From: a virus
Strand: one strand, 5' to 3'
Virus record (IMG/VR): IMGVR_UViG_3300008108_000181
Span: 17,197 to 81,196 of that record
DNA: 64,000 nucleotides
In this document: positions 39,661-41,598 of the stretch, piece by piece
How the letters are laid out: each line of letters starts with the position of its first letter
Numbering within the stretch: the stretch's first letter is position 1
Program-made: the position numbers and the translations under genes
Notes under the pieces: generated by a model
The model's input: only the letters and a program-made list of their open reading frames with translations
Told to the model about the DNA's origin: nothing
Database searches by the model: none

Positions 39661-41598
39661 TTAATTTAGTTTTTTAAATTCTACATCTATTTTATTGTAA
39701 TCAACTACATATAATCCATTTTCATTTAAAGATAATGAATCTTCATAATTAGTTCCAATCAACTCTTGAGCAATAACTCCTTGATATAATCCTTCTTCGT
39801 TTTTGTAATTAAATTGATAAACATTTAACCCAAAATCAGATACACCAATTAAAGTCAAATTTTCTTTATATTGAATATCTGATTTTTGGTCATTACAATA
39901 AGCAGTATTTGATATATACCCACTATGCGGTAAGTAGGTAAATACCGCGGCATTTTTTCCATATACGACTCTTGAACATCCTCCGTAGTAATTCGACCCC
40001 CAATAACCCGGACATGCAGTATTGTATGCATTATCAATGCAAGTATACCAAGCAACACAAAATGCTCCTCCGGCACCTCCGTGTGTATTTACAGCAGTCC
40101 AATATCTACAATCATAACCAAAGTTATGTGTAACTAACCCATATCTACTTTGATTTTCAGTTTCTTCCAAAGTAAGGAATAAATCCAATTCTTCAAAATC
40201 CAAAGTGTATCCAGTAAATTTATCAAATCTAAAATTTACATTGGTTATAGTAGTAATAATTAATTGATTAGTAGTGGTATCGAAGGTAAGAATTTCATCA
40301 CCGACTTTTAACTCTGAATATGTTTGAAATTTAACATAATCACCATCTTTTACCATTATTTCGGCATGGACAACATCACTAAATGTAGAATTAGTATCAG
40401 TTTCAAATGTAACTAATACTCCATAAAAATCAGTAGTTGATTTGTTTTCTAAAAATGATGATGATACTTGATAATCTGTAATTATTGAATCATATGAAGA
40501 GGACCACGCTACCAAACTAGGTGTATCACTTTCATCAGGTAATTCTGCAAATAAAATAGATTTTACTTCATCACCTATTTGTAAATTGGGTGCCAATTCA
40601 ATACTACCATCTGGTAATAGGACTTTAGTATTTTGGGTAGCACTTAACTTTATTGCAACTTGATTAGCTGTTGTATAAAATTTTTGAAGATATCTCATTC
40701 TATCCCAAGGTTGAACTTGATTGGTATCATCAAAATCTGCTGAAGATAGAAGTGGTAAAATTGTTGTTTTTTCTATAACTTGTAAGTTAATAATATCCAA
40801 ATTCGAACCATATAATAAATCTATGCTTCTATATGTATTTAATCTACCATCAAATAAATCGGTATCATTGAAAATATATTCTTGGATATATTCATCAACT
40901 TCCAAATTAGATTTTAAACTATTTAATTCTTCAAGTGTACTAATCTTATATAATTTTGGATAGATTTTATTATCAGAAGGAGTTACTCTTTTTTTAATAC
41001 AATAGTTAGGATGGTTTCCATTATCTCTTAATGTAGTACCAATACTATCTATACCAAATTCATTATCATCAATATAACATTTTGGAATAGAATTATTATC
41101 TGCATCATACATTAACTTTAAAAATCCCCAATTATCTCTAGCGTAATTATCATCAATTAATGCAGTAGTATCAAATGATAATCGTATGATTAGTTTATCT
41201 TCTGTATCTTCTACAAAAGGAATGGTAGTAGAAGTGGCATCTGTGCTTATTGTTACTAATTCTATATTACTTCCAGATAAAAATGATTTTAAATACTGAT
41301 TAAAAGTAAAATTAAAAGGTATGTTTGGTAATGAGTTAGCAGTACGATTTGAATTTATACTACGAAGTTCATTAAGTTCATAATTAAGTGTGTTAGCTGT
41401 TTCCGCGGACCTATTGGTTTCATTTGAAATTAATACAACTTCTGTAAAATTATTTGAAATTACAAAATTTTCAAATGATGCTGAATCAAAATTAAGAGAC
41501 CATTGGGTATCTAATTGAATATTTGTATTTGTTTCTAATGCTTTGAAGGTACCATCGGTATCTTTCATAAAATCAGTACCTATAATAACTGCTCTCAT
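39661..41598 (-). CDS. Polyprotein: permuted ATP-grasp-like domain, Hint domain, Cys/Tyr-rich peptide, peptidase S74 chaperone
   Basis: GTDFMKDTDGTFKALETNTN, PNYCIKKR, YIQEYI; SATQNTKVLLPDGS...LQIGDEV...LVTHN; SDIQYKEN...YQFNY...GVIAQE...VDYNKI. Confidence 0.75.
   Translation of the reverse strand: MRAVIIGTDFMKDTDGTFKALETNTNIQLDTQWSLNFDSASFENFVISNNFTEVVLISNETNRSAETANTLNYELNELRSINSNRTANSLPNIPFNFTFNQYLKSFLSGSNIELVTISTDATSTTIPFVEDTEDKLIIRLSFDTTALIDDNYARDNWGFLKLMYDADNNSIPKCYIDDNEFGIDSIGTTLRDNGNHPNYCIKKRVTPSDNKIYPKLYKISTLEELNSLKSNLEVDEYIQEYIFNDTDLFDGRLNTYRSIDLLYGSNLDIINLQVIEKTTILPLLSSADFDDTNQVQPWDRMRYLQKFYTTANQVAIKLSATQNTKVLLPDGSIELAPNLQIGDEVKSILFAELPDESDTPSLVAWSSSYDSIITDYQVSSSFLENKSTTDFYGVLVTFETDTNSTFSDVVHAEIMVKDGDYVKFQTYSELKVGDEILTFDTTTNQLIITTITNVNFRFDKFTGYTLDFEELDLFLTLEETENQSRYGLVTHNFGYDCRYWTAVNTHGGAGGAFCVAWYTCIDNAYNTACPGYWGSNYYGGCSRVVYGKNAAVFTYLPHSGYISNTAYCNDQKSDIQYKENLTLIGVSDFGLNVYQFNYKNEEGLYQGVIAQELIGTNYEDSLSLNENGLYVVDYNKIDVEFKKLN

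Follow-up and report, generated by a model that had tools for sequence, protein, structure and literature searches.

We analysed a window of 64,000 nucleotides of viral DNA (positions 17,197 to 81,196 of IMG/VR record IMGVR_UViG_3300008108_000181) and describe here one of its genes, an open reading frame (ORF) at 39661..41598 on the minus strand. It encodes 645 amino acids plus the stop and joins an ATP-grasp-like domain, a Hint domain, a Cys/Tyr-rich tail and an S74 domain in a single chain. The source record comprises 81,196 bases and is estimated to be 46% complete. The window is AT-rich (GC content 0.312, i.e. 31%), and almost all of its genes lie on the minus strand. Its baseplate-wedge protein is 42% identical to the counterpart in Microcystis phage Mel-JY01, and the source is therefore a large uncultured myophage. 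An earlier note, made from the letters of the sequence, had proposed the four-part architecture; the strings and coordinates it quoted are all present in the ORF, and the architecture is backed by fold searches and by conservation within the family. A word-indexed search returned 248 relatives, the best 120 of which are 40-100% identical to the protein and nearly all full length (625-679 residues). The N-terminus (MRAV..) is conserved among aligned homologues. Because >120 full-length homologues (40-95% identical) keep the whole layout, it is not due to chance. A scan for promoters and terminators was uninformative: it gave no terminator-like sites, and fewer promoter-like sites than shuffled sequences.

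Domains of the 645-residue protein

Residues 1-318 (40645..41598, minus strand) correspond to a circularly permuted ATP-grasp-like ligase domain, as judged from an AlphaFold2 (AF2) model and from Foldseek and VIA comparisons. The permuted motif order claimed previously was found: the D...E-x-N motif (D9, E22 and N24), which lies in GTDFMKDTDGTFKALETN (residues 7-24), precedes K202-K203-R204 and Q239-E240-Y241-I242. In 63 aligned homologues, D15, G16, K19, E22, N24, K202, R204, E240 and R257 are invariant. Moreover, E22, N24, R139, D149, K202 and R257 are invariant in 24 members that are only 24-42% identical to the first sequence of the alignment, and this invariance among divergent members argues for an active enzyme.

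The AF2 model of this domain, built from 63 sequences, has a mean predicted local distance difference test score (pLDDT) of 78.4 and a predicted template modelling score (pTM) of 0.76. At E ≤ 0.001 there were 15 Foldseek matches in the PDB, and the ones listed comprise YjfC/YgiC, glutathionylspermidine synthetase (GspS) and eukaryotic enzymes of the glutathione and homoglutathione synthetase types; their probabilities are 0.9-1.0, their E values 8.6e-5 to 1e-3 and their template modelling (TM) scores 0.3-0.4. VIA-align placed YgiC at the top (Z 7.9, root-mean-square deviation (rmsd) 4.7 Å over 213 residues), with YjfC at 7.8, 3k1t at 7.7, human glutathione synthetase at 7.5 and GspS at 7.3. 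All of ranks 1-22 (Z 5.6-7.9) are permuted enzymes whose alignment begins at model residue 1-3, whereas canonical ATP-grasps (TTL, LysX, Ddl, ITPK1 and pyruvate carboxylase) score 3.2-5.5 and align only from residue 41-52. This difference in starting point is what a circular permutation predicts. The N-terminal hairpin, formed by strands 2-12 and 18-24 and bearing D9 and E22-x-N24, has a counterpart at that position only in the permuted enzymes of the VIA alignments.

The term 'peptidylpolyamine synthetases' is applied to YgiC and YjfC in passages of PMC12568646, with Pederick et al. (2023) as the source cited. Among the references of PMC2845819 is Polekhina et al. (1999), whose title speaks of 'a rare gene permutation event'. 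In glutathione synthetase, according to passages of PMC2845819, the early strands beta5/beta6 form the floor of the nucleotide pocket, and the Mg ligands of the yeast enzyme include Asp130 and Glu146. In the VIA alignment, residues 122..474 of the yeast enzyme align to model residues 1..286; from these alignment ranges and the cited passages, D9 and E22 would fall about where Asp130 and Glu146 lie. An atlas look-up with this domain gave scores of 0.84-0.89 to ATP-grasp, GshA and GSP_synth clusters, which we treat as a lead only. A single-sequence search of the PDB with the 645-residue protein found no match at E ≤ 1. The profile search of the PDB gave sub-threshold matches at the expected places, namely the TvoVMA intein (E 0.41) and biotin carboxylase at residues 283-314 (E 3.2).

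The Hint domain occupies residues 319-492 (40123..40644, minus strand). It starts with SATQNTKVLLPDGS (residues 319-332), carries Ser319 at position 1 and a block-B-like His411, and ends in LVTHN (residues 488-492), so that His491-Asn492 directly precedes Phe493, the +1 residue. The coordinates, the LVTHN end and the Phe at +1 given by the earlier note were exact. In a second AF2 model (residues 305-645, pLDDT 83.5), the region was compared exhaustively with 48,161 chains by VIA. Inteins and Hedgehog-C, BIL and Vint domains account for every chain at Z ≥ 8, 29 in total, and these all score Z ≥ 8.5. Next to the TvoVMA intein at the top (Z 16.8, rmsd 2.0 Å over 146 residues), the leading matches include Hedgehog-C (1at0) and the NpuDnaB intein, each at Z 16.0, and the C. 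thermocellum BIL domain (2lwy) at 15.8, with an rmsd of 1.8-2.0 Å over 136-146 residues. Foldseek assigned the domain a probability of 1.0. In several inteins, residue 1 aligns onto model residue 15 (Ser319) and the last residue onto model residue 188 (Asn492). Modelled by segment, the protein thus resembles a permuted ATP-grasp in its N-domain and a Hint domain after it, as had been expected. Pfam PT-HINT matches 1 of 27 members, at E 0.02.

The Cys, Ser or Thr that serves inteins as the position-1 nucleophile is not maintained: position 319 is Ser or Asp in the S74-bearing clade and is not conserved across the wider family. Nor is there a Cys, Ser or Thr at +1 in this protein. We counted family members among 332 distinct sequences (protein ids plus the ORFs of 103 loci). 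In 295 of them the end of the domain could be located by requiring [HS]N, the other 37, which may end differently, being dropped; the domain ends in HN in 292 of the 295 and in SN in three. The HN pair is invariant in both family alignments. The +1 residue of the 295 members is most often Tyr (132), with Phe in 24, Ser in 22, Ala in 22 and Pro in 21. Because intein position 1 is an unconserved Ser or Asp, no N-terminal (thio)ester is possible; these residue patterns exclude the Hint domain from splicing and from any N-terminal (thio)ester chemistry. Asn cyclisation is the C-terminal cleavage reaction of inteins and BIL domains; judged by the same patterns, it is the sole Hint activity kept by selection. 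In some relatives (P0218, P0240, P0250 and P0255), His-Asn is followed by one or two additional Hint domains of the canonical (Cys1) kind, and three others (P0139, P0143 and the ORF at 8001-10049 of locus L047) have an insertion of ~150 residues inside the Hint domain, the Cys-rich tail still being terminal.

The tail that follows (residues 493-572, 39883..40122, minus strand; FGYDC...CNDQK) is rich in Cys, Tyr and Gly, its 80 residues including 6 Cys, 11 Tyr, 3 Trp and 11 Gly. Its GC content is 0.40, compared with 0.269 in the rest of the ORF, so both the composition and the GC rise agree with what had been noted from the letters. The rise lies mostly at codon positions 2 and 3 (0.54 and 0.25 vs 0.33 and 0.13), which fits Gly, Cys, Ala and Tyr codons. 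C497, C520, C541, C568 and the C-N-x-x-K ending are invariant, and C514 and C529 are variable. The earlier note had suggested a check of the peptide for hypervariability, and a comparison of 600 sampled pairs of S74-bearing members showed that the tail evolves faster than the other parts. Where the N-domains share 80-90% identity (42 pairs), identity was 76% in the Hint domain, 82% in the S74 domain and 45% in the tail, and it fell to 38% in the tails of the 32 pairs with N-domains 70-80% identical. A fast tail on a conserved carrier points to an interface under an arms race, as in an adhesin, an inhibitor or a toxin-like effector. AF2 models the tail as a small beta-sandwich (pLDDT about 75-90), with weak VIA matches to viral jelly-roll and C1q-type domains (Z 3.7-4.0). 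A diversity-generating retroelement with its template in the window was considered as the source of this variation and rejected: the tail DNA has no second copy in the 64 kb, the best other match being 17 nt (E 0.15; no search was made for a reverse transcriptase), and the tails differ in length.

The chain ends with an S74, or intramolecular chaperone autocleavage (ICA), domain at residues 573-645 (39664..39882, minus strand), which starts with SDIQYKEN (residues 573-580) as previously read. The Pfam match in this protein is weak (Peptidase_S74, PF13884, on residues 573-614; E 0.0076, 17 bits against a cut-off of 22). PHROG 6121 matches the region at E 3.6e-6, the PHROG matches being annotated as 'virion structural protein' and 'tail fiber protein'. 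Of 27 homologues, 22 have a Peptidase_S74 match at E ≤ 0.1, the best value being 2.1e-5, and a precomputed PF13884 match is recorded for 4 of the best 120 of the 248 relatives. S573, D574 and K578 are invariant in 27 aligned sequences. They reproduce the Ser, Asp, Lys(+5) pattern of the catalytic dyad that passages of PMC3742443 give for ICA domains (S578, D579 and K583 in MYRF); the same passages state that ICA cleavage depends on folding and trimerisation.

Distribution of the family and of its S74 domain

Relatives of the protein are encoded by 299 stretches of IMG/VR. We searched 1.84 billion representatives exhaustively with the profile and obtained 4,561 matches at E ≤ 0.001, of which 124 reach E ≤ 1e-30. 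Among the strong ones are many proteins of ~490-550 residues that cover only profile positions 1 to ~520; they have the same N-domain and a Hint domain ending in HN, with a short Cys-rich tail directly after it. Most members of the family lack S74 and carry a tail of 20-70 residues with an even number of Cys after His-Asn. Among the 332 sequences, 149 have the N-domain without S74, and the tail is ≤ 140 residues long in 122 of these. One relative (P0248) has a long region after HN that is not Cys-rich. Judged from these sequences, the S74-bearing proteins are one clade of a much larger phage family that otherwise lacks S74.

The number of Cys is even in 120 of the 122 S74-less members with tails ≤ 140 residues (6 in 56, 8 in 39 and 10 in 17) and in 142 of 144 S74-bearing members. 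Cys makes up 16.9% of the residues of S74-less tails and 0.5% elsewhere. Even Cys numbers in a hypervariable sequence would be the signature of disulfide-bonded extracellular mini-proteins.

To place S74 on the family tree, we used FastTree on the N-domain plus Hint region, with 176 rows kept from 285 sequences (109 were dropped as ≥ 75% identical to a kept one). S74 occurs in 52 of the 176 rows and its distribution requires 6 gains or losses, compared with 45 when labels are shuffled. One clade of 53 rows contains 50 S74 rows and three without S74 (L026, P0125 and L059). S74 is also present on unrelated tails outside this clade, in P0142 and P0148. From the tree distribution and these unrelated tails, S74 is therefore a mobile add-on.

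The three S74-less members of the clade are informative on where the chain would end. In L026, a stop codon directly follows ..CNHQK, whose Lys equals K572, and the tblastn match covers query residues 1-572 exactly; P0125 and L059 have 5-10 extra residues after the Lys. Of the 122 S74-less tails, 90 have a Lys among their four C-terminal residues, and in 32 it is the final residue. In S74-bearing members, the residue before the Ser573 position is Lys in 92 of 144 and Pro in 47 of 144 (..QKP followed by SD in aligned examples). Removal of S74 would thus recreate the type of C-terminus native to S74-less members, which is the best indirect support for a second cut.

The family is known solely from uncultured phages. 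A tblastn search with the 645-residue protein and the distant members P0160 and P0194 against 50,697 GenBank phage records, from which records near the genome of the window may be left out, found no relative. In 185,579 species genomes the sole match (L103) lies on VHCC01000082.1, a 3,697-bp contig of a Pelagibacterales metagenome-assembled genome that contains the main gene, a micro-ORF, a Zn-ribbon gene and a gene for a 426-residue protein. This contig is probably binned phage DNA and possibly, at most as a hint, a pointer to a SAR11/LD12-type host. The combination of ATP-grasp, Hint, tail and S74 is in no Pfam, PHROG or PDB family, and the same architecture was not found in the literature as judged by titles and abstracts; supplements of Hint or ATP-grasp surveys could list the fusion.

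Nearly identical copies of the gene occur in 18 public runs, which come from about a dozen studies and nearly all bear a freshwater or lake label. The tail allele of the window was found without differences in contigs of three of the four runs compared (X6, X14 and X18; contigs only). One contig of X18 shows 5 differences over the Hint region (40098-40620) followed, towards the tail, by 66 letters unlike the window; this single contig is a weak sign of a strain whose tail differs though its Hint domain is nearly the same.

Neighbouring genes and a shared C-terminal tag

The gene is followed, 1 nt beyond its stop codon, by the start of a micro-ORF of 49 residues (39510..39659, minus strand; MATEINKN...AVKENHL). 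The micro-ORF product is always 49 residues long (MATE.NKN ... A.K.KH[LM]), and its gene lies between the main gene and the Zn-ribbon gene. A regular-expression scan found it in 37 of 103 loci, and the 14 loci listed (L029 onward) all belong to the S74 clade. Next comes the gene for a 93-residue Zn-ribbon-like partner (39210..39491, minus strand), which in the alignment shows the pattern CxxC...CxxCGCP..KKIF...CP..KW and an extension ending ..KQKNSLI. Its C33, C36, C49, C52, C54 and C68 are invariant. The Zn-ribbon gene adjoins the family gene in 28 of 28 close loci and lies within 600 bp of it for 63 of 71 distinct family proteins (38 upstream, 25 downstream); of the remaining 8, two lie at contig ends and four have a Zn-ribbon gene at a distance of 0.7-1.3 kb. 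In L047 the two genes overlap by 4 nt. A complex prediction for the full-length protein and the Zn-ribbon partner gave scores of 0.11, 0.35 and 0.01 against a mark of 0.32 and counts neither way.

Further downstream on the minus strand lie six consecutive genes (34688..39181) whose products end in K-x-x-K-[ST/N/K]-[LI]-[IF]. They encode a SET-domain protein (38798-39181), the 426-residue protein (37493-38773), a 2-oxoglutarate (2OG)-Fe(II) oxygenase (36847-37491), a sulfotransferase (36103-36846), a second 2OG-Fe(II) oxygenase (35426-36073) and a second sulfotransferase (34688-35425). For the 426-residue protein, an atlas score of 0.83 to GT10 fucosyltransferases is a lead only. The profile of the sulfotransferase paralogues matches heparan-sulfate 2-O-sulfotransferase at E 3e-4, with alignment of the PKTASTSF, HGH and RD..ER..S motifs. 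The two genes of the window have no Pfam match themselves, and 3 of 27 members match Pfam Sulfotransfer_2. These profile matches and motifs identify the two products as sulfotransferases of the 3'-phosphoadenosine 5'-phosphosulfate (PAPS) type, and the Tyr-rich tail (11 Tyr in 80 residues) is a candidate substrate. Synteny with the Zn-ribbon, sulfotransferase and 2OG oxygenase genes is kept across loci down to ~30% identity.

The Zn-ribbon, SET and 426-residue proteins, the 2OG oxygenases and the sulfotransferases are unrelated, and all end in K-x-x-K-[ST]-[LI]-[IL]-COOH. Within the window, the pattern [KRN][STNK][LIVFM][ILFM] ends 11 of 99 minus-strand ORFs, and 7 of the 11 are the consecutive genes at 34688-39491; further tag-like ends are found at 42414-42776, 16892-18607, 48126-49901 and 54079-55014, with ..KKII or ..KNIF at the end of three more distant genes of the window, including that for the carbamoyltransferase. 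With a stricter motif ([ST] at -3) applied to the ORFs of 103 loci, the frequency of tagged ORFs falls with distance from the family gene, from 98 of 226 within 1 kb (43%) to 107 of 320 at 1-3 kb (33%), 43 of 343 at 3-6 kb (12.5%) and 5 of 138 beyond 6 kb (3.6%), and one of 107 ORFs on the opposite strand is tagged. Lys stands at -7 in 71% of tagged ORFs, though this position is outside the search pattern. The 260 tagged ORFs form 20 clusters, 11 of them with ≥ 3 members; by N-terminal motifs alone, these seem to include a flavin-dependent halogenase-like family and a second sulfotransferase-like family.

Both codon boxes of Ser are used at -3 (AGY 48, TCN 75), and selection on the tag therefore acts at the peptide level. 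An origin of the tag at the DNA level, such as a ribosome-binding site or promoter at gene ends, was ruled out by this use of both boxes and by Leu codons at -2 (TTR/CTN) that are about as in gene bodies. An untagged paralogue of the Zn-ribbon protein (50280..50603, minus strand; BLASTP 31% over 88 residues, E 6e-8) ends in ..CPAGKW without the tagged extension of ~20 residues, and this internal control indicates that the tag is an appended module. The shared tag probably docks the enzymes onto the precursor.

The gene of the untagged paralogue lies beside a cluster of 9 tRNA genes. At the end of the cluster, after eight ordinary tRNA genes, ARAGORN called a 92-nt tRNA-like gene with a four-base anticodon (attg; 53067-53158, minus strand), which could be a tRNA with an intron, resemble a frameshift suppressor or be a false call.

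Proposed processing, alternatives and known systems

On balance, and with moderate confidence, we read the gene product as a precursor that processes itself to yield a disulfide-rich and probably trimeric mini-protein; its cleavage and ligase chemistry we infer. The S74 domains would trimerise the protein through the tail and then cut themselves off between Lys572 and Ser573 by means of the Ser573/Lys578 dyad. Asn492 would cyclise and break the Asn492-Phe493 bond, and a mini-protein of 80 residues (F493-K572), probably a trimer, would be freed. Its six Cys would form disulfides after cell lysis into oxic lake water. The fused ligase, together with the sulfotransferases, 2OG oxygenases, SET methyltransferase and Zn-ribbon protein, would act on the tail before or after release. 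The double autoprocessing proposed by the earlier note is likely, given the conservation of HN in 292 of 295 members, the invariant S573, D574 and K578 and the stop of L026 at the predicted cut site. The tail is possibly a trimer, a state that follows only from known S74 behaviour.

Several points weigh against this reading. The ATP-grasp match is at the level of the fold only, with Z ≤ 7.9 (middling by the tool's own note) and TM scores of 0.3-0.4 for the model. Residues 1-318 have no Pfam match at E ≤ 1, GSP_synth and CP_ATPgrasp included, and hhalign of the family profile against E. coli Gss (NC_000913.3) detected no similarity (probability 0.1). The +1 residue is Pro in 21 of 295 members, and the tail, modelled as a folded beta-sandwich that continues the chain, would also fit a head domain that stays attached. 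Elsewhere, S74 domains typically belong to virion fibres and spikes, and aquatic phages commonly encode enzymes of the neighbouring types for other reasons. Everything beyond the architecture is drawn from conserved residues and context.

Among the alternatives, the one that survives best, though unlikely, is that the protein remains an uncleaved or S74-trimmed trimer, virion-associated or a free adhesin or enzyme, with the Hint domain as a degenerate spacer and the Cys/Tyr beta-sandwich head as a receptor-binding tip. The S74 domain would then do what it normally does, since the PHROG labels and passages of PMC3742443 connect it with the maturation of trimeric fibres or spikes; however, most members of the family lack S74 and have a tail of just 20-70 residues. 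A compact beta-sandwich with a weak jelly-roll or C1q likeness (Z 3.7-4.0) suits a receptor-binding protein, and hypervariable C-terminal tips are typical of such proteins, but a virion-anchor or shaft domain is absent and the gene sits among enzymes, ~25 kb from the baseplate genes. Moreover, a spacer needs no His-Asn, yet HN is kept in 292 of 295 members despite the loss of the position 1 and +1 nucleophiles.

As to ligation, the earlier note had suggested that the new amine of the freed tail could be joined to a target by either upstream domain. For the Hint domain this is unlikely, because position 1 is an unconserved Ser or Asp and no (thio)ester can form. For the ATP-grasp domain it is plausible by analogy, because the nearest folds are peptide-carboxylate/amine ligases. 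We consider it quite unlikely, however, that a specific Hint-primed, ATP-driven reaction takes place, in which the GspS-type ligase would join the freed tail amine to the C-terminal carboxylate of the tail Lys or of the enzyme tag. Both carboxylates would be attractive substrates, and the Hint-made amine an attractive nucleophile, because the nearest ligase folds activate a peptide C-terminal carboxylate. With the tail Lys exposed by S74, the product would be a head-to-tail cyclised cystine mini-protein; with K-x-x-K-[ST]-[LI]-[IL]-COOH, the enzymes would gain a hypervariable trimeric binding module.

In a related and very unlikely alternative, the ATP-grasp domain is a hub that binds, and perhaps ligates, the enzyme tag or the Zn-ribbon C-terminus to the Hint-exposed alpha-amine, so that the tail ends covalently joined to tagged proteins and is not set free. 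The N- and C-termini of the Hint fold are adjacent in inteins, and the new amine would thus arise beside the ligase-Hint junction. The tag acts at the peptide level, is carried by at least 11 unrelated families of at least three members each and is concentrated round the gene, and the untagged Zn-ribbon paralogue sits outside the block; however, something else might just as well read the tag as a signal for docking, degradation or sorting. The nearest folds (GspS, and YgiC/YjfC as 'peptidylpolyamine synthetases' in passages of PMC12568646) act on peptide C-terminal carboxylates, but a one-shot ligation would consume each enzyme. Most improbable of all is a metabolic enzyme that makes a small amide of the glutathione- or polyamine-conjugate type and is regulated or localised by the Hint-tail part, for example through metal binding by Cys: the closest folds are small-molecule ligases and Cys-rich tails could bind metals in the reducing cytoplasm, but a regulatory appendage is not expected to be the fastest-evolving part with even Cys numbers (120/122 and 142/144) despite free change of length and sequence, and the conserved His-Asn and S74 are left unexplained.

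If the self-processing reading is true, aquatic phages hold a widespread and unstudied route to hypervariable disulfide-rich mini-proteins, in which the precursor supplies its own ligase and two 'proteases' of its own and the tailoring enzymes are marked by a common C-terminal tag. The logic of ribosomal peptide natural products would then extend to viruses, and crippled Hint domains, as well as S74 chaperones outside tail fibres, would have a new use. Parts for biotechnology would include a means of releasing a peptide scarlessly, whatever its N-terminal residue, and possibly an ATP-dependent peptide ligase or docking tag. The hypervariable tail would mark an arms race in lakes, where the gene is common. 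If the Hint-primed ligation takes place as well, backbone-cyclised or trans-ligated proteins would be made by a virus along a new route.

Each part can be compared with a known system. The BIL type A and pretoxin-HINT families of polymorphic toxins, reportedly described by Amitai/Pietrokovski and Zhang/Aravind, share with the phage protein a Hint fold with a C-terminal His-Asn and no +1 nucleophile, directly before a hypervariable C-terminal module thought to be released. However, the setting here is viral, the carrier an ATP-grasp and the cargo a Cys-rich mini-protein instead of an enzymatic toxin. Marks of a polymorphic toxin are lacking: the N-terminus is the ATP-grasp, without a secretion or trafficking domain, and the neighbours are the micro-ORF, the Zn-ribbon gene and enzymes, without an evident immunity gene. 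The BUBL loci of Tetrahymena encode BIL, ubiquitin-like and BIL domains in series, and BUBL structures (6y75/6tmm) are among the structural matches of the Hint domain. In both systems a small module lies between two autoprocessing domains and both of its termini are made without an external protease, whereas the downstream domain here is an S74 serine-lysine autoprotease and not a second Hint, and in place of a thioester that drives conjugation there is an ATP-grasp domain.

GspS, YgiC/YjfC and eukaryotic glutathione synthetase are the best folds over residues 1-310 and share the order of a Mg-binding hairpin first and the ATP-binding Lys and hinge later. The phage domain differs from them in having no detectable sequence similarity, in being ~100 residues shorter N-terminally and in its fusion to a Hint domain and to its own putative substrate. 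With S74/ICA domains such as that of MYRF, the protein shares the C-terminal position and the invariant Ser-Asp with Lys at +5 (as described in passages of PMC3742443). In contrast, S74 here follows an 80-residue Cys/Tyr-rich domain and no fibre or triple beta-helix, and it has been gained and lost.

In the pathways of ribosomally synthesized and post-translationally modified peptides (RiPPs), leader-core precursors are acted on by tailoring enzymes, as in the graspetides made by ATP-grasps. The phage locus is alike in that the encoded peptide has a hypervariable core and is accompanied by a conserved set of genes for modifying enzymes, an ATP-grasp among them, and, as in RiPP clusters, the precursor gene is conserved beside the tailoring enzymes. 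However, a 490-residue enzyme plus self-cutting domain takes the place of the 'leader', an external protease is not required, recognition may run the other way, through a tag on the enzymes, and the ATP-grasp is of the permuted GspS type and not of the graspetide type. Each part has a precedent, in BIL/PT-HINT, BUBL, GspS-type ligases and S74; for the four-part combination none turned up in the papers, families and GenBank phage records searched.

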